Below the pieces are notes generated by a model, which searched no databases, was not told the origin of the DNA, and was given only the letters and a program-made list of their open reading frames with translations. The position numbers were made by a program, and so were the translations under genes. Shown piece after piece: positions 1,123 to 24,280 of a stretch of DNA of 64,000 bases. Source of the DNA: a virus; the IMG/VR virus record IMGVR_UViG_3300045988_182866; one strand, 5' to 3'. How positions within the stretch are numbered: the first letter of the stretch is position 1; each line of letters opens with the position of its first letter.

Positions 1123-1458
1123 TTACTGAATACTCTGAGTCGGAACTTCAAAGTTCAGCATTTCAGCCGCAGGTTCGAAACTCGTAATTTCGTTAAGAAT
1201 ACTTTCAGGAAGAGAATCCTTCAGCGGTTCAACAACCATCTGATGCCAGGGTTCAACAATCTTTTCGTTCCAAGTAGCCTGGGCCTCTTCAGGAGTAGTT
1301 TTGCCAAGCAGAACCTTATTAGTCAGATTCGTCTTAGTCGTGCAAGCCTTCGACTGAACACCAGCATAATCACGAGCAGAAACACTCGCACGAATGCGAA
1401 TAACGGTTCCATTGGTCAGATGAGCGTTCAGGTCTACGTTCTTAATGTCTTTAGCCAT
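1123..1458 (-). CDS. hypothetical protein (GC-richer codon usage, own terminator; likely highly expressed)
   Basis: 111-aa ORF; strong terminator immediately downstream. Confidence 0.5.
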   Translation of the reverse strand: MAKDIKNVDLNAHLTNGTVIRIRASVSARDYAGVQSKACTTKTNLTNKVLLGKTTPEEAQATWNEKIVEPWHQMVVEPLKDSLPESILNEITSFEPAAEMLNFEVPTQSIQ

Positions 1459-1560
1459 TGTATGTTTTTCTTTCTATTTTAGTTTGTTTTGTTTTTTAAG
1501 TTAACCACTTAATGTGATTTACAGTTTTATAATAAGATTTAACTTATTGTTCAAAGGTGT

Positions 1561-1800
1561 TCAAGATTTCTTCTTGATATTTCTAGGATCACAAAATAGC
1601 ATCGGAATAAAGAACACTATATCAAGGCAAATTGCAAGAGGAGTATAAATCAATATTCCGAAGGATATAATCATTAGAGCAAGTTTGTCTCTAAATCTTG
1701 GAGCATCTCTCATATACTTGAAGCAAGTATAGATTAGCTCAAACTCAAATCTCAGAAACGGTAGTACCATCAGATGGACTGAATACAAAAGCCCGTACAT
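1561..1800 (-). CDS. small membrane protein
   Basis: 79 aa, hydrophobic segments. Confidence 0.35.
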   Translation of the reverse strand: MYGLLYSVHLMVLPFLRFEFELIYTCFKYMRDAPRFRDKLALMIISFGILIYTPLAICLDIVFFIPMLFCDPRNIKKKS

Positions 1801-2218
1801 ATTGAGCCAATGGAAGCCTCTGTCTCCATTCGGCTTTGAGCTGAGTAACTCTATTCCGATAATTCCGTTCAGATTTTGGACAAGAATTTATAATATCTTC
1901 GGAAATAATTTTACAATGCTCGATATAAACCATATTTTCCTGATAAGAAAACTCCCGCTTAGGCTGAAGGCCGTTCAAAGTTTTAATAAAAGAATCCCGC
2001 ATTTCAGATAAAGCTTGAATCTCTTCTTCATCTACGAGTTCCTGAAGCAAAGTTCGTTCAAGAGTATTTTTAATAATTTCAAGGCTTTCCCGAACTAACT
2101 CCAAATATCCATCATATCCGATCTTTTCGAATACAATATTTTTTAGGCTTCGGTCGGAAGCAGAGAAATATTCTTTCAGAAAATATCTTTGCATATATTT
2201 GTTTATCTGTAGTTTCAA
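1745..2218 (-). CDS. hypothetical protein
   Basis: 157-aa ORF. Confidence 0.45.
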   Translation of the reverse strand: MKLQINKYMQRYFLKEYFSASDRSLKNIVFEKIGYDGYLELVRESLEIIKNTLERTLLQELVDEEEIQALSEMRDSFIKTLNGLQPKREFSYQENMVYIEHCKIISEDIINSCPKSERNYRNRVTQLKAEWRQRLPLAQYVRAFVFSPSDGTTVSEI

Positions 2219-2261
2219 TCCACATACTTTGAGCTAATCAAAGTATGAAAAAGTTTAATGT

Positions 2262-2729
2262 TTACCTATAAAATGCCGCCGTTACAGTCAACCCGTTGTT
2301 GAAGACAACCTTACCGCAAATAATATAACCGTCCTCCTCTTCTTCATCAAATTTGGTAAAGCTCTTAATATAGCCATTAGCTTTGATAAAATCAAGAAAA
2401 TCTTTCTCTCCAAGGAACTTATAATTGTTCGGAGAAAATATAGTTATTTCACCGGTAGACTTATTTTCAATCGAGATAAGATTTGCCCGACTGCAATAAT
2501 AAAGGAACATGTTAGCATTCCGGTCAAAATTAACAATCTGTGCACCCTTCAAAGTAGTAAACCTAAAGTTAGAATGGCCGAGTTGTCCTTCATACATTCT
2601 AGCGAAGCTGTTAATATTTTCTTCAGTAAAAGGATTTTCCCGAATAACTTTAGAATGGAATACCCATTTACCTGCTTTGGTTCGTCTTTCTACGATAATA
2701 GTCCGGAATTTCTGGTTTGTCTCTAGCAT
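2262..2729 (-). CDS. hypothetical protein
   Basis: 155-aa ORF. Confidence 0.5.
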   Translation of the reverse strand: MLETNQKFRTIIVERRTKAGKWVFHSKVIRENPFTEENINSFARMYEGQLGHSNFRFTTLKGAQIVNFDRNANMFLYYCSRANLISIENKSTGEITIFSPNNYKFLGEKDFLDFIKANGYIKSFTKFDEEEEDGYIICGKVVFNNGLTVTAAFYR

Positions 2730-2738
2730 ATTTTGATT

Positions 2739-2942
2739 TTAGTGTATATTGTTAAGATTTTTATAAACTGCTTTAGTATATTCGTCCTTTTTAGAAACCC
2801 AACGTTTAGGCATGCTGATACGTTCTTTCTTAGAGAGGAATGACCAATGAGTTGCTTTACCGCCTTTTGTCTTTCCCTCTTTACTCCAAATGCCTGAAGT
2901 TTTCATACTTCTAGGAGTTGGCTCAATACTGTCATTCAACAT
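2739..2942 (-). CDS. small basic protein
   Basis: 67-aa ORF, K/R-rich. Confidence 0.35.
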   Translation of the reverse strand: MLNDSIEPTPRSMKTSGIWSKEGKTKGGKATHWSFLSKKERISMPKRWVSKKDEYTKAVYKNLNNIH

Positions 2943-3371
2943 AATTTTATGTTATTTGCGTTCTATTTTCTCAAAGGTGTTTTAACAATTGGAAATAAGT
3001 AAAAATTATTCCAATTATGAGTGCGATTATAAAAGCAATTATATTTGCTTGCCATTGTTTCATTTAACCAAAGAATACTTGATAAAGTTGATAAATGCCT
3101 GCAATAACAAGTATAACAATTGCTACGCCCAAAGCTTGCATAAAACCTTCAAATGATTCAGGATCAGCCATGATATTTGATATAGTTGATTGTTAAAAGA
3201 ATGATAAAACCAATTCCAAAACCAGTAAGCCAGGATTTTATCATATTAAAACTTATCTGGATTTTCTGAAATCCATTTAGATCCCCATGCCATTAGGCAA
3301 AGAACCAAAAGAATTGCAGGACCAACCAAAACCGGTTTAAGGGCCTCATATAGTTCAATAAGAAAAGTCAT

Positions 3372-3668
3372 TTAATAATATCCTATCCAGTTGTTAAGTG
3401 TTGCCAGTTCTTCTAATTTTGTTTCTGCTTCTTGAAGAGTCTTAAAAATAAAATCTTCTTTATTCAATCCTTGTTGAATATCCCAAATATATCCTCGTTT
3501 GATAAATTTGGAATGAAAATCTTCTCCTCCGATAATTACTCGGATAGAATAATCTTCTTTTTCAAAATGGACCACTTGAAGATAAATCCTGAAACCGTCG
3601 CCGTCCCCAATATGATATGTCTTTGACGGCTCCAGGACAAATTCCGTAATACTACTTTCGTTTTCCAC
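3372..3668 (-). CDS. hypothetical protein
   Basis: 98-aa ORF. Confidence 0.4.
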   Translation of the reverse strand: MENESSITEFVLEPSKTYHIGDGDGFRIYLQVVHFEKEDYSIRVIIGGEDFHSKFIKRGYIWDIQQGLNKEDFIFKTLQEAETKLEELATLNNWIGYY

Positions 3669-4044
3669 GCTGACCTTTCTTATATTCCCAATTCTTCATC
3701 TTAAGAAGATAATAAACCCTCCCAACTGCAATTCCAGAAAGAACGGACATTTGCTTAACTGTACGATCCGGAGAATAAAACTTTCGAAGTTGCTCAATCT
3801 CAGGTTCCCAATCTCGAGTTTGCCGCCCTGAAGTAGCCCGGCCGCCAATTTTACCAACATAAACAATATCGCAAAGATATTTGCCAAGTTTGAAAAGATT
3901 GTTAACAGGCTTAATATTGTCCTCAATATTCAAATCCGAAAAATAATCTTCCTTTGCTTTATTGAGAACATCTTCAATTGTTCCAAATTTTACATTAACA
4001 ATCTGAAAGTTTAATGTTTCAGTGTTGATAATTTTTATTTGCAT
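3652..4044 (-). CDS. hypothetical protein, possible C-terminal HTH
   Basis: 130-aa ORF; C-terminal basic helix-turn-helix-like segment. Confidence 0.45.
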   Translation of the reverse strand: MQIKIINTETLNFQIVNVKFGTIEDVLNKAKEDYFSDLNIEDNIKPVNNLFKLGKYLCDIVYVGKIGGRATSGRQTRDWEPEIEQLRKFYSPDRTVKQMSVLSGIAVGRVYYLLKMKNWEYKKGQRGKRK

Positions 4045-4091
4045 GATACTTTTATTATATTTCTTACCTTATTATTTGAAGGTGTTAGAAC

Positions 4092-4367
4092 TTAAACCAA
4101 ATAAAAGAAATGTTTCTTTTTGAAATTATACAAAATATACCTTTTTTGATCTTCATCATATTCAACTTCAGACTCTTCTTCTCGATAAAACATCTTAATA
4201 TCATTGGACAAGCGAGTAACTAAGATGCCATATTCCGGCCGTTCTTTAATTTCAATCGAAACTTCAACGGGCTTAAGAAAATCAAAATTAAGAGGAATAC
4301 CACAATATTTTACTTTTTTCCCTTTTAGCTTTTTAGCAAACTTTCTAAAGTCTATTTTATTTTTCAT
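4092..4367 (-). CDS. hypothetical protein
   Basis: 91-aa ORF. Confidence 0.4.
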   Translation of the reverse strand: MKNKIDFRKFAKKLKGKKVKYCGIPLNFDFLKPVEVSIEIKERPEYGILVTRLSNDIKMFYREEESEVEYDEDQKRYILYNFKKKHFFYLV

Positions 4368-4451
4368 TTAATTTATTTTTAAGATTGTTTTATTCTTTTA
4401 TAATATAATAATCTTATTATAAAAATAATTCCTTAAAACGATTTTTAGAAT

Positions 4452-7786: not shown

Positions 7787-8800
7787 TCAAATATTGGAAT
7801 AATAATCCATTGACTTTGCCTTATAATGAGTACCGTCTTCAAACTCAATAACAACACCTTCTCCATCTTCTTTTGGAGCTTGTTGGAATTGAAGCAGGAG
7901 ATCTTTAGTTATAGTCATTTCTCCCAGAATAGGAACAGTTTCCAATTCTAAACCTAAAACTTCAGTGCACCACAAGAAATGGCCCTGAGTTCCATATAAC
8001 CCCCATTTCCAAATTGTATTATCTTTTGAGGGATGTATTGTTTTGAAAAGATTAAACTTTAAAGGACCTTTAGAATCTTTGTTAACTTTATTTCCATTAA
8101 CTCCATGCCCGGTAATTTCTCCTCGAACAATGATCGTTTCATTATATTTCTTTACCCACTTTTCCAAAGCAGGTCTTACAATTTCATGTCCGACTTTTGT
8201 ATATCGATTAAAACAATCATTTTTATAAGTGAAACGTCTTCCGCAACAATAAAATTCTCCGCCGGCAGTTAAAATATAAGTTGCGGAACAACCATCCATC
8301 TTTCGGGTCACAAGAGCTTTTTGTCCTAAAAGAAGCTGATGTTCAGGAATATTTTCCCAATTCTCTTCATCAGTCTTTGTAAGATTAAGGGGAAGATTAG
8401 GAAAAGCAACCGCAAGATCATTAGGAAGAGGAGGGCTATAATGGCCGATACCTAAGTCAATTGCTACTTGCTCAGGCTTTATATCAAGTATTAGATCCTC
8501 ATCATGAATACTATATTCAGATGCCAAATCTTTAAGCTTTACAAAAATACCATTGGAATATTCTCCTCTAAGCTTAACTGTTCGAACTCGATTTTCTTTT
8601 CCGGTATAATTTAAGAAAGGTTCAGCCCAAACTTTATTATTGGGAAGTTTTGCATCCGGACAAATAAACAATCCAATTTCATTTTCAATAAAACTACCCT
8701 TTGGTACAACAACGGGCCAATTGTTTACTAGCCCCAAATCAAGCTTATCCGCATTAGGGTGAGGATGAATATTTGTAATTCTAGAAAAAAGACAATCCAT
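7787..8800 (-). CDS. RNA ligase with N-terminal tRNA-binding-type OB domain (Rnl5-like)
   Basis: N-terminal HPHPNADKLDLG resembles EMAP/MetRS/CsaA tRNA-binding domain; central KMDG (KxDG) nucleotidyltransferase lysine motif. Confidence 0.6.
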   Translation of the reverse strand: MDCLFSRITNIHPHPNADKLDLGLVNNWPVVVPKGSFIENEIGLFICPDAKLPNNKVWAEPFLNYTGKENRVRTVKLRGEYSNGIFVKLKDLASEYSIHDEDLILDIKPEQVAIDLGIGHYSPPLPNDLAVAFPNLPLNLTKTDEENWENIPEHQLLLGQKALVTRKMDGCSATYILTAGGEFYCCGRRFTYKNDCFNRYTKVGHEIVRPALEKWVKKYNETIIVRGEITGHGVNGNKVNKDSKGPLKFNLFKTIHPSKDNTIWKWGLYGTQGHFLWCTEVLGLELETVPILGEMTITKDLLLQFQQAPKEDGEGVVIEFEDGTHYKAKSMDYYSNI

Positions 8801-8804
8801 GATA

Positions 8805-9065
8805 TTAATTTTTGACCGGAATAATTTCCGCAGAACCTTTAATAATATAAGTTTCTTTTGAATTTAAAGGAGTTACTTCAATATAATTGCCGTTTACTTT
8901 ATAATTTTTGGTGATTAAGGTATTGACAATCTGACCTTGTTCATTAAACTCGGTAATAATAACTACCGGAGCATTTTTCTTTTGGTGGCGGTCATACAAA
9001 ATCATTCCGCTAATTCCAGTCATTACAACTGTTGTAATTAAAGTAATCCAACCTGCAAAACTCAT
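8805..9065 (-). CDS. small membrane protein
   Basis: 86 aa with N-terminal TM helix. Confidence 0.4.
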   Translation of the reverse strand: MSFAGWITLITTVVMTGISGMILYDRHQKKNAPVVIITEFNEQGQIVNTLITKNYKVNGNYIEVTPLNSKETYIIKGSAEIIPVKN

Positions 9066-9227
9066 AATTCTTTGTCTGTGTATTCTCTATAAGCTTCGCG
9101 GAGAGTTTCCAGCCTTCCTTGTTTAGGAAGTTTAGAAGCCTCGGCAATAATAGCCTTGGCTTCTTCTTTTGGAAGTTCATAATAAAGCTTATTTTCTGCT
9201 CTTTTGATTTCTTCTTCTAAAGTCATA

Positions 9228-10712
9228 TTAAATGGTGATTACTTTATAACGTTCAGAATTAATAACAGACTCCATAAATTGTTCAGGATTTTTGCCCTGA
9301 AGAATCAGTTCAAACATTCCGGGCTTGCAGCCGTTAATAATAATTGCTCCTTCATCATTCTTAGTGACAGGCTGGTTGGCCTTGTAATCGGCAGCAACAT
9401 TCCAGTAAACAAGCTTAGGACATTCATATTCTGAATTCCTAAACACTTTCTTGATGGAATTCATTACATGCTCCGGCCATCTTTGCTGGTCAAACTGCAT
9501 GTCAGAAATAACAACAATTACCTCAGGCATTTCTTCCTTAGGAATATGATGCTTAATTGCAGTGTTAAGAACCAATTCAAATACGGCATAAAGGTTAGTA
9601 CTTAAACCTTGACGAGGATTATCCTCAATATTGGTAACCTTTCGCTTAATTTTATCTTCTGGATTTAAATTAACCAGATAAGGTTCAGAGGAAAAGGTAA
9701 TGAACTTATTCTGAAATACTCCCATATTACGTTCGGCAATATAAAGGCCGAGAGAAATAGAACAGTTCATTGGAAGTTCTTCATGACAAGTCATGGATCC
9801 AGAAACATCAACTACTGCAAGCCAGTTTGCATGGTCTTCCTCTCCAAAATAATTCGGAAGGGCTTTCCACATTTGATCCATCAATGCCAATTCCTTATCA
9901 TCATAAGTATGACGAACTTTTCGTACAATCTCATAAGGATAAAGAGTTTTAGAATTTACTTTAGCTTTACCATTTGCAAGTGAATTAAGATATTCTGTAT
10001 ATCTGTCATTATCATTTCGAGCAAATGCTTTTCGATACTTTAAAGCAGCTTGGCCCGGAACTTGGGAATAATCAAATTCATACTCTTTCTTAGAAAGATG
10101 AGACTCAATAATATTGATGGCCTTACGAAGACGAGAAAGCATTTTTCGATAAGATTTTTCATCCATTCCAAATACTTCTCGACGAATCTTATTTGCAATC
10201 GCCTTAGTATGTTTAGAAGACGTATTGCAAGAAGGAAGCCATTTCGCACAAAGAGAAATATCAGAACTACCTTTATCAAGCTTTTGAATATCTTCATTAA
10301 TTTGAAATTTAATAATTTCAGCAATATGATTACTGATACTTCTTTCGATTCCGTAAAGAGCAATCAAATCATCCCAACGTCCGTAAAACGGAATAAAACG
10401 AAGAACTTTACAAATAGTTTTAGGATCAATATCAATAAGTTCTTTCATTCCTTCTCGAAAGATATTTCTTTCACCTTGTCCGCCATTACCTCGAATATCC
10501 CGAAAATAAAAAAGAATACGAATACAAAAAAGCTTATCTTCAGAGTATGCCTTTCGAACAAGAGATTTCAAACGCTTAGAATCTGAGCGACAAGATGCAC
10601 CAGAAGCAAATAAATCAAGAAGACTGTCAAGAGTAGACTTGTATGCTGGACAACCGTTTTCAGTTTCTGTACTATTATTTTCCACTGTCATTGCTTTAAA
10701 AAGTTCACTCAT
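9228..10712 (-). CDS. von Willebrand factor A domain protein, Ro60/TROVE-like architecture
   Basis: C-terminal vWA with MIDAS motif VVDVSGSM.., helical N-terminal ~300 aa with YFRDIRGNGGQGER; overall layout as in Ro60/Rsr. Confidence 0.6.
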   Translation of the reverse strand: MSELFKAMTVENNSTETENGCPAYKSTLDSLLDLFASGASCRSDSKRLKSLVRKAYSEDKLFCIRILFYFRDIRGNGGQGERNIFREGMKELIDIDPKTICKVLRFIPFYGRWDDLIALYGIERSISNHIAEIIKFQINEDIQKLDKGSSDISLCAKWLPSCNTSSKHTKAIANKIRREVFGMDEKSYRKMLSRLRKAINIIESHLSKKEYEFDYSQVPGQAALKYRKAFARNDNDRYTEYLNSLANGKAKVNSKTLYPYEIVRKVRHTYDDKELALMDQMWKALPNYFGEEDHANWLAVVDVSGSMTCHEELPMNCSISLGLYIAERNMGVFQNKFITFSSEPYLVNLNPEDKIKRKVTNIEDNPRQGLSTNLYAVFELVLNTAIKHHIPKEEMPEVIVVISDMQFDQQRWPEHVMNSIKKVFRNSEYECPKLVYWNVAADYKANQPVTKNDEGAIIINGCKPGMFELILQGKNPEQFMESVINSERYKVITI

Positions 10713-21583: not shown

Positions 21584-22208
21584 TATATTTTTCTTTTTTC
21601 CTTAAAATATCAAGGCACTCTTCCAAAGTAAAATAAATTCGATTCTTTAACTTCAACGCATTGTCAACTCCACAATCAAAAATTTTGCCAAATGAAGAAT
21701 CATCTGCATTTAAATGAGGACTGCCCCCATGACAGTGCCCGCAAAGAACTCCCAAAGCGGCATGATCCCAATCCATAATTGGAAAATGAGAAAGCCAGAC
21801 ATAACATTTCTTGGAAATTCTCAATGGAATATTAGAACCTAAAAGGGCAAGATTTTCATATTCATTATTACTGGTACCGCCAAAAATAGTATTCAATCCG
21901 GAACAGTGGTTACCAGTTAATGTATAAATCTTTTTAAATGGAAAAGTAGAAAATATTTTAATAATATCCGCAGAAGCATCATTAAAGATATTATCTCCTA
22001 GAGAAATCAAATAAGAATCTTTATTATTGATGGCAAGATTATATAATTGGTCCAGACAATAATCAGTGTATTCAGCACAAGAGTTAAATCCTCTTGCCCC
22101 GTAAAGAAATTCTTTGTCATGATTCAAATGAAGATCAGAAACAATAAAAATATTCTTATCATTCAATTCTTTAATCAACGGGCCAATGATATTATGTCTC
22201 AGAATCAT
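21438..22208 (-). CDS. calcineurin-like metallophosphoesterase
   Basis: SDLHLNHD, LGDNIFN, GNHC motifs. Confidence 0.65.
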   Translation of the reverse strand: MILRHNIIGPLIKELNDKNIFIVSDLHLNHDKEFLYGARGFNSCAEYTDYCLDQLYNLAINNKDSYLISLGDNIFNDASADIIKIFSTFPFKKIYTLTGNHCSGLNTIFGGTSNNEYENLALLGSNIPLRISKKCYVWLSHFPIMDWDHAALGVLCGHCHGGSPHLNADDSSFGKIFDCGVDNALKLKNRIYFTLEECLDILRKKEKYNDLQLHAKRKAEEHFKDDPDNEGTLSDNHSGITGFWQNDFGEGGFESV

Positions 22209-22309
22209 ATTTTTTATTTTCTTCTTCTAGCTGTCTTTTGATAACTGGATCGCCTAGCCAGTATATAAAATATTCTTTATCATCCTGAGATTGAATCCAA
22301 AGATACTCA

Positions 22310-23763
22310 AGGCTCTGTCCTACCACAGTGTTGATTTTTAAGGAATCTTTCATGCTGTAAGACTTAATGTGTTGATGTTACCATCAAGACAATGGGTGAA
22401 GCCCCACCCTCTACACCTTGGTCGGAGACCGACATCGGGTGCTTCTTTTCTATATCGATTTTAATTGGATTAAACATTGATTTGTGAGGTGAGAATGTTT
22501 TGCCGAGACCTCTACGCAGTATGTTAGCGGCACCATTGATGTCGGCGTTTAACATGCATCCAACAGAGCTTACAAACAACCCACGTTTCTTTCTCTTACC
22601 CATATATTCATCATAGTGACAAATATCCTCGTCGTCAAGGAATGAGCATTTGGAGGTGTGAGACTCATTGTGAGTTTCCACATTGATACCGGCTTCACTT
22701 GCTTTGTAAGACAACATCCAAATGAGTTGAGAATGTGGAATGCTCACAAAGTTCTGATTGTTTCGTTTACCAATGTTTACTTCCTGCTTCCATCCATCAT
22801 TATGACCGATAAAGCAGTTTCCGATTTTGTTTTCTACCATCAAATCAACCACTGAACGACTAGCCTTGTGCATATAATCTTTTGTTTTGTTATTGCGCTT
22901 TCTAGTAAGTCTCCTGAGTTTCTTTGATGTATTCATATCTCTCTCAGCCAACTTAGATACAATTTCAGCGTAAGTCTTGTTATAATATTGGTTGATGCTC
23001 TTTAATGGTCTGCCATTAACAAGGTGGGATATAGACCCCTCGTTTGAAGTTACAGCCATTAAGTTATCAATACCAATATCTATCCCTACTGCTTTGTTGT
23101 AGTCTAAGTCAACCGGAGAAATCTTTGTTTTGTAGAAGATTTGTATCTCTATACATCCTTGCTTTGGCACAAGACGAAGCTCTTGCAAGGAGGTGAGCTT
23201 CGTTTTAATTGGAAGCTTAAAGTCCTTGCGAATGTTTATCGTTCCGTCTTTCTGGATTTTCGCGTCATTATAAGAGAAGGCAACGGAAAATAACTTATCG
23301 CCATTTGCTTCTTTCTTATACCTGGGCATCCTTGGTTTCCCAGTGAATTTCTGTGGATTCTTCTTGTATGAGTTAAGAGACCTGAACCAAGTAGAGAATG
23401 ATTCGGCACACTTCTTCACAGTTTGTGCTGCTTCGTTATCCTTTAACAACGATCTAAAATCTTTGTCGTTTAACTTCCTCATTCTGGTGATTAGGTCAAA
23501 CACAGAGATAAATTTCTCTTTCCTGATTATGTCTGTGTATTCAGGAATGTTCTCGTGTTTGCCACTAAACGCTTGGCGGAGAATGTATAACGTTCTATTG
23601 TAAAGAGATGTATTCAGAGAGCATTCTTGCACAGCCCAACCATAGAAGGATGTCCCTTCTTTTATCTGGTGCGTTTCAACTCTGATTGCCTCTTCTTGCA
23701 TTCGCTGTTGTATATATTATACCATAGGTTTATCAGAAATCAACACTGTGGTAGGACAGAGCC
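22310..23763 (-). mobile_element. TnpB-only element bounded by perfect 28-bp terminal inverted repeats
   Basis: 22310-22337 is the exact reverse complement of 23736-23763 (AAATCAACACTGTGGTAGGACAGAGCCT); the TnpB ORF lies between. Confidence 0.6.
22364..23701 (-). CDS. tnpB: TnpB (IS200/IS605 OrfB, RuvC-like OMEGA nuclease)
   Basis: 445 aa; C-terminal zinc finger C..C..C..C and RuvC-III motif NADINGAANI. Confidence 0.85.
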   Translation of the reverse strand: MQEEAIRVETHQIKEGTSFYGWAVQECSLNTSLYNRTLYILRQAFSGKHENIPEYTDIIRKEKFISVFDLITRMRKLNDKDFRSLLKDNEAAQTVKKCAESFSTWFRSLNSYKKNPQKFTGKPRMPRYKKEANGDKLFSVAFSYNDAKIQKDGTINIRKDFKLPIKTKLTSLQELRLVPKQGCIEIQIFYKTKISPVDLDYNKAVGIDIGIDNLMAVTSNEGSISHLVNGRPLKSINQYYNKTYAEIVSKLAERDMNTSKKLRRLTRKRNNKTKDYMHKASRSVVDLMVENKIGNCFIGHNDGWKQEVNIGKRNNQNFVSIPHSQLIWMLSYKASEAGINVETHNESHTSKCSFLDDEDICHYDEYMGKRKKRGLFVSSVGCMLNADINGAANILRRGLGKTFSPHKSMFNPIKIDIEKKHPMSVSDQGVEGGASPIVLMVTSTH

Positions 23764-23773
23764 TAAATGTATC

Positions 23774-24280
23774 TTAACCGTCTCTGTATTCATGAACACC
23801 CATTCTCCACTCGGGATTTTCAATAAAATCTAAAACGTTATCTAAATCTGCATAAAAATCATTATCAAAAATGATTTCATCATCATATCCATCAGAATAT
23901 ATTGGACGTTGAATATAGAATTTTTCATTCGAATAATTTAAATTAAGAATATATCCAGACCTAAGTTCTAGACGTCGAATAATTTCTTTATAAGTTTCAT
24001 TCTCTTGAACCTCGGCATAAGAAATATATCTGTCATAATCTTCCTGATTCTGCCAAAAAGCCGGAATACCTGATAAAACTAAAGCAAGTTTGTTATCTGG
24101 GCTAACATCCCCAGTTTCATCAATCCACCAGTCAAAATCAATATTGACAACCTTATCTTTATCGGCTTTGGAACGAGCCCAACCTTTAAAAGATATTCTT
24201 TCAGACTTAATAGGGTAAGTATAAGAATGAACAGAAGATGAATTAGTTTCAAATACTCCAGAACGAGTTACAATTTTCAT
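23774..24280 (-). CDS. FETNSSS-motif family protein (paralog 1)
   Basis: N-terminus MKIVTRSGVFETNSSSVHSY shared with two neighbouring ORFs. Confidence 0.5.
   Translation of the reverse strand: MKIVTRSGVFETNSSSVHSYTYPIKSERISFKGWARSKADKDKVVNIDFDWWIDETGDVSPDNKLALVLSGIPAFWQNQEDYDRYISYAEVQENETYKEIIRRLELRSGYILNLNYSNEKFYIQRPIYSDGYDDEIIFDNDFYADLDNVLDFIENPEWRMGVHEYRDG

Follow-up and report, generated by a model that had tools for sequence, protein, structure and literature searches.

By which route does a gene for TnpB, the ancestor of Cas12, come to lie between two long and perfect inverted repeats in a phage genome? The question is raised by a stretch of viral DNA of 64,000 nt (IMG/VR record IMGVR_UViG_3300045988_182866; hereafter, the window, at its full length), in which a tnpB gene is enclosed in this manner between positions 22311 and 23763. 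TnpB is normally tied to transposons that excise scarlessly, namely those of the IS200/IS605 and IS607 types, and the current model of why RNA-guided nucleases are carried by transposons rests on this tie. To our knowledge, the reported prokaryotic links of TnpB to cut-and-paste DDE transposons are few. On the basis of copies at other sites, of unrelated elements with the same ends and of a natural empty site, we consider that the unit in the window is very probably a non-autonomous element of the IS1595 family (DDE, cut-and-paste type) that carries tnpB together with a guide-RNA scaffold.

Where the mobile unit begins and ends

The window contains two copies of the 28-mer AAATCAACACTGTGGTAGGACAGAGCCT and no more, at 22310–22337 on the minus strand and at 23737–23764 on the plus strand, with 0 mismatches; this pair was absent from 100 dinucleotide-preserving shuffles, even with up to 3 mismatches tolerated. 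A repeat finder gave the same pair and extended it inward to 39 nt at 87%, a gain no greater than expected by chance. A preliminary description of the locus, made from the sequence alone, had pointed out the two perfect copies, with an end coordinate (23763) that is one base short for the 28-mer, which runs to 23764. The functional end has proved to be 27 bp, GGCTCTGTCCTACCACAGTGTTGATTT, with GG as its first bases: the 8-bp target-site duplications (TSDs) described below are exact only when the repeat starts there, and the 28th pair (22310/23764) is flanking sequence, which is A or T in other copies. The whole mobile element is thus at 22311–23763 on the minus strand (1453 bp). The left terminal inverted repeat (TIR), upstream of tnpB, lies at 23737–23763 and reads GGCTCTGTCCTACCACAGTGTTGATTT on the minus strand; the same sequence also ends elements in metagenome-assembled genomes (MAGs) of Akkermansia. 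The right TIR, downstream of tnpB, lies at 22311–22337 and reads GGCTC...ATTT on the plus strand, or ...AAATCAAC...GAGCC in the tnpB transcript. The gene does not fill the space between the repeats exactly, as had been thought, since 35 nt separate the left repeat from the ATG of tnpB and 26 nt separate its stop codon from the right repeat. The GC content is 39.8% in the element and 31.7% in the window.

Further copies were collected through exact and degenerate repeat searches of public sequence collections. L001 and L002, which belong to the same phage lineage, have the element at the same place as in the window. L003 and L004 represent a different phage with higher GC, in which the flanks are unrelated and include an amidase gene and TnpB is 86% identical to that of the window. 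Independent sites were found in other large phage contigs, L009 (TnpB 89% identical) and L021 (78%), and one more copy with the same ends, 80% identical, is present in an Akkermansia MAG contig (CANRET010000056.1), where the neighbours are ordinary bacterial genes encoding an amidohydrolase, an MBL-fold protein and HsdM/HsdS. When five copies from two unrelated phage lineages were aligned, similarity extended exactly from AGGCTC to GAGCCT, and the flanks beyond were unrelated. Because homology among copies at unrelated sites stops at the outer edges of the repeats, the repeat-bounded unit is what moves, and the 27-bp inverted repeats are its exact limits, the true termini that the preliminary description had supposed. 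The search of other genomes found the repeat in phage contigs and in Akkermansia MAGs; it does belong to a multi-copy family, yet this family is defined by element boundaries and is not a genome-wide repeat unrelated to them.

Ends of this type have accompanied this TnpB lineage for a long time. In L090, TnpB is only 52% identical, and its element has diverged ends (GGCTGTGTTAAACCACAGTGTCCAAAA and GGCTCTGTTAAACCATCGTGTCCAAAA; the right repeat overlaps the tnpB stop codon) and the perfect 8-bp duplication TTATTGTA, so that the link is not a one-off capture. The left repeat has been lost from L010 (83% identical) and from L012 (70%), in both of which a degenerate right repeat can still be recognised. 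In L017, L018 and L089 (55–62% identical), a search for inverted ends outside open reading frames (ORFs) found no inverted pair above chance, and this search could miss repeats that overlap ORFs, as the right repeat of L090 does. The related contigs encode phage proteins including a T4-type RNA ligase, gp23, gp19, UvsY and a RecA-like protein. No match to the locus was found by megablast among 50,697 phage records, and a search at the protein level gave only relatives with at most 44% identity.

Shared ends, target-site duplications and an empty site

Evidence on what moves the element comes from other elements with the same ends. The degenerate core GCTCTGTCCNANCACNGTGNTGA was found in 39 stretches of a species-representative genome collection, of which 31 are in rabbit-gut MAGs labelled 'uncultured Akkermansia sp.', with several copies per MAG. 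Behind the one conserved 27-bp terminus, the copies have interiors of at least seven unrelated kinds. Besides the tnpB elements (1452–1459 bp), the family includes elements with a 179-aa ORF (L030 and L032; 633–634 bp) or a 279-aa ORF (L050; 1240 bp), six ORF-less miniature inverted-repeat transposable elements (MITEs) of 247–252 bp, and the element of L058 (102–4193; 4092 bp), which carries an IS1595-family transposase, a D12 adenine methyltransferase and two more ORFs. In this element of L058, the first gene encodes a 351-aa protein that scores 177 bits with NCBIfam transpos_IS1595 (NF033547; cut-off 75) and also matches Pfam DDE_Tnp_IS1595, with an N-terminal zinc ribbon. The ends in the window are the same as those of L058 over 27 bp, with 0 mismatches at either L058 end. 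Eight more transposase matches, with 87–98% identity, are present in other contigs, and those whose 5' end lies within the locus (L036, L057, L040 and L059) start about 80 bp inside a repeat. Among the elements examined, tnpB and the IS1595 transposase were not found together in one element. The element in the window encodes no IS1595-type DDE transposase, and this gene is present between identical ends in L058; we therefore regard the former as a non-autonomous derivative, not as an insertion sequence (IS) in its own right. Its proposed mobilisation in trans by an IS1595-type transposase of the host is well supported by these sequence comparisons.

The second line of evidence is the TSDs. With the element start set at GG, perfect 8-bp AT-rich direct repeats flank 11 of 19 scored end pairs, a set that spans MITEs, cassettes, the L058 transposase element and two tnpB copies. 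The duplication is TATGAAAA (tnpB strand) in L003, and the same duplication is found in three further metagenome contigs with the L003-type site; it is AAAAGCTA in the Akkermansia copy. The total with the window-type repeat comes to 14 duplicated pairs among 21 scored, to which L090 with its diverged repeat is additional. Sibling tnpB copies at three sites (L003, L035 with L031, and L090) are thus flanked by perfect 8-bp duplications, and A/T-rich 8-bp repeats are made by an IS1595-family IS (PMC12561309). These duplications, together with the same ends around an IS1595-family DDE transposase, bear out the view that movement is not of the IS200/IS605 kind. The window copy itself has no target duplication, so that duplications looked for at 22310 and 23763 were found only around elements with the same ends.

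The reason can be seen at the empty site. Contigs encoding exactly the 168-aa protein of the gene next to the left end provided ten places, nine of which carry the element (tnpB is split in L067); the tenth, L063, is empty. L063 is identical to the window through ...GGTTAAGATACATTTA, up to 23764, and again from TTGAGTATCTTTGG..., that is, from 22310 downward; between these junctions it has 283 bp (4018–4300), which lie within an intact 153-aa ORF (3958–4419). An otherwise near-identical phage contig therefore keeps the intact site, which the preliminary description had recommended searching for. The window copy has no duplication because its insertion replaced 283 bp of this phage gene, removing one side, and the 53-aa ORF at 22192–22353 (minus strand) is the truncated 3' remnant of the 153-aa gene, joined to an ATG that lies within the element. 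Elsewhere, too, DNA beside an end has been deleted: L004 (around 2292) is without 38 bp that directly adjoin the left end in L003 (1998–2040). The contigs with the neighbouring gene come from human-gut samples; one of them is 202,854 bp long and encodes the T4-type RNA ligase nearby.

Several smaller observations concern these sites. The ATG at 22351–22353 lies close to the right end, on its inner side, and starts a frame that runs outward across 22311–22337; the equivalent ATG is in frame with the downstream amidase start in L003 and is not in frame in L009, and the arrangement may thus be chance. Five clustered substitutions distinguish the window (22282–22288) from L063 (4323–4329) at 23–29 nt past the right end (CTCAGGATG vs CCTTAGACG), in flanks that are otherwise near-identical. 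They amount to two synonymous codon changes and a change of Q to L, and the cluster could be the edge of a target site or of a conversion tract, or could have arisen by chance. A 7-nt inverted match, AAGATAC, occurs in the flanks at 22294–22300 and 23769–23775, 4 and 5 nt outside the ends; we rejected it as an extension of the repeat, because the two positions are 283 bp apart in the empty site and the match is probably a coincidence.

Decay products were also found: L075 (1637–2846) has a 249-bp internal deletion with its duplication kept, tnpB is broken into two ORFs in L067 (4080–5417), and L029 (512–576) is a 65-bp relic that consists of the two ends back to back. In L058, the region 1397–4118 encodes the D12-class N6-adenine methyltransferase, a 275-aa ORF and a 157-aa ORF, which are probably restriction-modification cargo. 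Intein-containing genes for anaerobic ribonucleotide reductase (NrdD) lie near tnpB in L009 (5934–8813) and in L010 and L011 (1–3323 in both), indicating that mobile elements cluster there. At least two TnpB-family genes are present in some of these phage genomes: the 210-kb contig NODE_11_length_210273 (L011 and L017) has P0023 (83% identical) and P0035 (62%), and L021 has a second TNB-domain gene (8349–9347) at 3 kb from its tnpB copy.

TnpB and its predicted guide RNA

The tnpB gene (22364–23701, minus strand) encodes 445 aa. The protein scores 74.4 bits with Pfam OrfB_IS605 (PF01385), 38.9 bits with Cas12f1-like_TNB (PF07282) and 152.7 bits with NCBIfam guided_TnpB (NF040570), for which the cut-off is 100, and it is therefore assigned to the TnpB family. 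In an alignment with 21 homologues (51–89% identity), D208 (in GIDIG), E346 (NESHTSKC) and D387 (NADING) are invariant. The canonical position of the RuvC-II glutamate reads IGHND, and the alternative E346 lies six residues before C352. The zinc finger that had been noted is degenerate: both CxxC pairs are missing, and C352 alone is invariant among the 21 homologues, with H363 nearly so. An AlphaFold2 model built on a 21-sequence alignment has a mean pLDDT of 59, with values below 50 in the RuvC and C-terminal parts, and is unusable for the active site; phmmer with TnpB against PDB sequences gave no match at E <= 0.001. No TnpA is present, as had been stated, in that precomputed Pfam hits gave no Y1 or resolvase domain among the genes neighbouring tnpB in the window. 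Likewise, Y1_Tnp had no match among the neighbours at about 12 distinct tnpB sites, and close relatives also have no adjacent resolvase domain.

A sigma-70-like promoter candidate for tnpB is located at 23716–23743 (minus strand) and consists of TTGATT, which lies within the left repeat, 16 nt and TGgTATAAT. With 10 of 12 consensus positions matched and an extended -10, this candidate is a match to the consensus and no more; L003-type copies do not conserve it. Since the only good promoter-like site is inside the left repeat and points inward, the left repeat would not be transcribed with tnpB, barring read-through from upstream.

At the other end of the gene, a probable omegaRNA (reRNA) scaffold occupies 22311–22447 (minus strand), which comprises the tnpB 3' end, the spacer and the right repeat; conservation, MITEs and a consensus fold all point to this region. 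The tnpB 3' end, the short spacer and the right repeat form the most conserved stretch between diverged copies. The MITEs, of about 250 bp, have their last ~135 nt in common with the tnpB element, from AAGAAGCACCC to the end of the repeat, while their first ~110 nt are unrelated to tnpB. They are found, with the same ends and 8-bp duplications, at L025 1940–2191, L027 6777–7024, L037 5014–5260, L043 432–679, L061 7382–7629 and L072 288–537, and may be satellites that consist of the guide RNA only. RNAalifold gave three local helices for an alignment of 11 sequences composed of tnpB copies and MITEs. Among them, a covarying hairpin, GUCGG-UCU-CCGAC, lies at 22421–22433 (minus strand) and has two-sided changes in 3 of its 4 pairs; one pair appears as GC, AU, CG and UA among the 11 sequences. 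Its covariation score was reached in 0 of 500 shuffles, and sliding the partners abolishes the pairing. Because this structure is conserved despite lying inside the tnpB coding sequence, it points to a functional RNA. Rfam gave no family on either strand, with E up to 1. The omegaRNA suggested earlier for the tnpB 3' end thus has a conserved region with a covarying hairpin in its favour and no Rfam match.

In Fanzor RNAs, the TIR and TSD belong to the scaffold and the RNA runs ~15 nt further (PMC10711439). By analogy with TnpB and Fanzor RNAs, the guide would be read from the flank at about 22291–22310 (minus strand) or slightly beyond; the predicted guide is TTGAGTATCTTTGGATTCAA or a stretch whose start lies farther out by up to 8 nt. 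TTGAGTATCTTTGGATTCAA has no second copy in the window, and the empty-site phage L063 has it intact (4301–4320).

Spread of the element and known systems

Comparison of phage variants bears on how the element spreads. L002, L073 and L085 have it at the same junction, 99.9% identical to the window. The 500 bp adjoining the left end are 84% identical to the window in these three contigs, and on the right side the flank is about 99% identical over 1.75 kb (L073) to more than 4 kb (L002 and L085). With an element at 99.9% and a left flank at 84%, the pattern is what would be expected if homologous recombination had carried the element from one diverged phage to another, and the right side, with its longer conversion tract, would be the one where a guide-directed break falls. 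Since ordinary mosaicism would fit as well, the pattern gives weak support for homing. The 168-aa gene beside the left end (compared with 23764–24280 of the window) is itself only ~84% identical in the three contigs, and the left junction thus forms a sharp boundary in the mosaic.

In the mechanism that we propose, an IS1595-type transposase from the bacterial host would move the element in trans, and an omegaRNA would be transcribed from the tnpB 3' end through the right repeat into the flank, with the result that each insertion would produce a guide matching its own right flank. The TnpB–RNA complex would then cut element-free genomes having that flank, such as those of co-infecting phages like L063, and repair from the occupied genome would copy the element in. 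Such repair copying would explain why phage variants with a left flank of only 84% identity share this junction and have a 99.9–100% identical element in it. Read-out of the guide through the end and nuclease-driven homing are plausible, and we hold this part only tentatively. In a wider form, the idea would be that modules of TnpB and guide RNA have long resided in IS1595-type transposons, in which transposition gives them sites and the read-out guide gives a homing nuclease that converts element-free phages, while MITEs are satellites that give a resident TnpB extra targets in bacterial genomes. We regard this wider picture as doubtful at present; if true, it would be the bacterial and phage counterpart of the partnership between Fanzor and DDE transposons.

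Several points weigh against the proposed explanation. Ordinary recombination among phages, with no homing by the nuclease, could have produced the mosaic pattern of identity. The omegaRNA, its 3' end, the guide and the target-adjacent motif (TAM) are all predicted, and there was no consistent motif 5' of the left end or 5' of the duplications across sites. The pairing of the repeat (UGGUAGGACA) with the upstream UGUCUUAGUA in the RNAalifold structure has no two-sided changes and is thus unsupported. The canonical RuvC-II glutamate is absent, and the predicted nuclease activity depends on the alternative invariant glutamate. As for transposition, no IS1595 transposase was found anywhere in the 64-kb window by tblastn or in any phage locus examined. 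The transposase hosts that were found are rabbit-gut MAGs only, whereas the phage comes from human-gut samples, and contigs can be misassigned in MAG bins. Three of the four phage sites bearing the window-type repeat have no duplication, and deletion explains only that of the window.

In the most probable of the alternatives, the window copy is a transposon fossil and spreads only as a free-standing gene for an RNA-guided homing nuclease, through recombination between co-infecting phages, the repeats being kept only because the right one is in the scaffold. That no transposase was found in any phage locus would be natural in such a case, and so would the occurrence of the same junction, including the 283-bp deletion, in diverged variants with a 99.9% identical element. 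The relatives that have lost the left repeat and keep a recognisable right one (L010 and L012), as well as the many related phage TnpBs (55–62% identity) that have no inverted ends, are also in keeping with it. However, both repeats of the window are perfect, and the left one, for which no obvious RNA role can be seen, is equally conserved across copies of 78–100% identity; moreover, at least four different phage sites are occupied, and one perfect duplication requires real transposition into phage DNA. We judge this alternative to be possible, on the unlikely side. A much less probable one is that the repeats act mainly at the RNA level and are not transposon ends, pairing in a read-through transcript so as to bracket, stabilise or process the tnpB mRNA and the omegaRNA. 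A perfect 28-bp duplex would indeed be very stable, and read-through from upstream is conceivable because the flanking genes are all on the tnpB strand. The pairing in the transcript, which the preliminary description had also raised, is nevertheless disfavoured by the promoter-like site that starts within the left repeat and points inward, and identical repeats bound unrelated contents, including protein-only cassettes and a transposase; in addition, the duplications indicate a role at the DNA level, and relatives work without the left copy.

The least credible account, that of a classical IS200/IS605 element with tnpB only (IS1341-type), moved by Y1 as single-stranded DNA into the middle of a palindrome of which the repeats are the split halves, could draw on TTGAT at the inner edge of the left repeat, which is like the ISDra2 TAM, on the fact that this family is normally without inverted ends (PMC13565253) and on L010 (83% identity), which has no inverted ends and a small hairpin upstream, but the repeats accompany tnpB to at least five unrelated sites with flank similarity stopping at their outer edges, the empty site of L063 has no palindrome, 8-bp duplications lie directly outside the repeats, a DDE transposase gene is found between the same ends, no joined palindrome was seen in scans of the collections (every inverted pair encloses an element of at least 65 bp) and the repeat has an internal stem of 4 bp only. 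Insertion into a palindrome with TTGAT as the TAM had been a candidate, and we rejected it after the flanks of independent copies and the empty site had been seen.

Under the proposed reading of an IS1595-type element mobilised in trans, the locus offers a compact study system: 27-bp ends, a candidate transposase, occupied and empty alleles, deletion derivatives and MITEs with the scaffold only. It could show whether guide RNA is read out through the end of a DDE transposon and whether the nuclease is a homing device in phage populations. For annotation, it means that solo tnpB genes of phages are not necessarily relics of IS605.

Among known systems, the IS200/IS605 and IS607 families have neither inverted ends nor duplications (PMC13565253, PMC6188088). 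The IS1341 group of the former, with tnpB only, and its PATE derivatives share with our element the protein family, a scaffold that overlaps the tnpB 3' end and short ORF-less derivatives; in contrast, they are without inverted ends and duplications, insert beside a TAM and move single-stranded by Y1, all of which fails here. IS607 uses a serine recombinase TnpA and also has no inverted ends or duplications, whereas here no resolvase domain is found next to close relatives, and inverted ends as well as duplications occur. The free-standing genes for homing endonucleases in T4-like phages, Seg and Mob (PMC13565253), resemble the present case in that a nuclease gene is wedged between conserved phage genes, with presence or absence among close relatives and a sharp change of identity at the junction; the differences are that target recognition here is predicted to be RNA-guided, that the gene arrived as a transposon with defined ends, and that homing is a matter of deduction.

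The likeness to Fanzor suggested in the preliminary description is apt, since Fanzors, too, are carried by cut-and-paste transposons that have TIRs and TSDs (PMC10711439). In Spodoptera frugiperda ascovirus, for example, the Fanzor1 element (PMC10711439, PMC3627910) is likewise non-autonomous, with a nuclease as its sole gene, TIRs and short TSDs, and resides in a large virus; its RNA scaffold is thought to include the TIR, and its catalytic glutamate is non-canonically placed (PMC10711439). It differs in that the host here is a phage or bacterium, not a eukaryote or a eukaryotic virus, and RuvC-I here is D-I-G (G-I-D-I-G), which is D-P-G in Fanzor. The TnpB in the window resembles the TnpBs with a rearranged glutamate that have been discussed for Fanzor ancestry (PMC10711439), but its RuvC-I is not DPG, and we see no sign of a direct evolutionary link to Fanzor.

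The IS1595 family and its passenger-carrying relatives, as presented in PMC12561309 (citing Siguier et al. 2009) with ISApl4, have inverted ends, A/T-rich 8-bp duplications and passenger genes, and a zinc-ribbon DDE transposase corresponds to that of the autonomous member L058. The element in the window differs from them in having no transposase and in having as its passenger an RNA-guided nuclease with its RNA.

The closest precedent is provided by the DDE-linked and solo TnpBs. The main text of Altae-Tran et al. (2023; PMC10691335) describes six branches of TnpB associated with DDE transposases, all with inverted terminal repeats and with IS630 named, as well as solo TnpBs that lie between such ends too and whose movement is presumably in trans. 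The TIR-flanked TnpB of the window is indeed not of the IS605 kind, but the arrangement has more precedent than the preliminary description had suggested: prokaryotic TnpBs with inverted ends, DDE-linked and solo, had been described in 2023. The DDE families linked to TnpB in the main text of a 2026 review are ISL2, IS630 and IS1031 (PMC13565253). IS1595 is not mentioned in the main texts of these two papers (PMC10691335, PMC13565253), and TnpB and IS1595 co-occur in nine papers, never both in the title or abstract. The present elements and those of PMC10691335, as far as its main text describes them, have in common a TnpB in a transposon with symmetrical inverted ends, a tnpB 3' end less than 250 bp from an end, and the presumed movement of solo copies in trans. 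Here, instead, the partner is of the IS1595 family, tnpB and transposase are in separate elements, copies reside in large bacterial phages, and ORF-less MITEs keep the RNA scaffold. Accordingly, while the link between TnpB and DDE transposons is itself already known, what appears to be new here is the IS1595 partner, the phage setting, the natural empty site and the scaffold-only MITEs.

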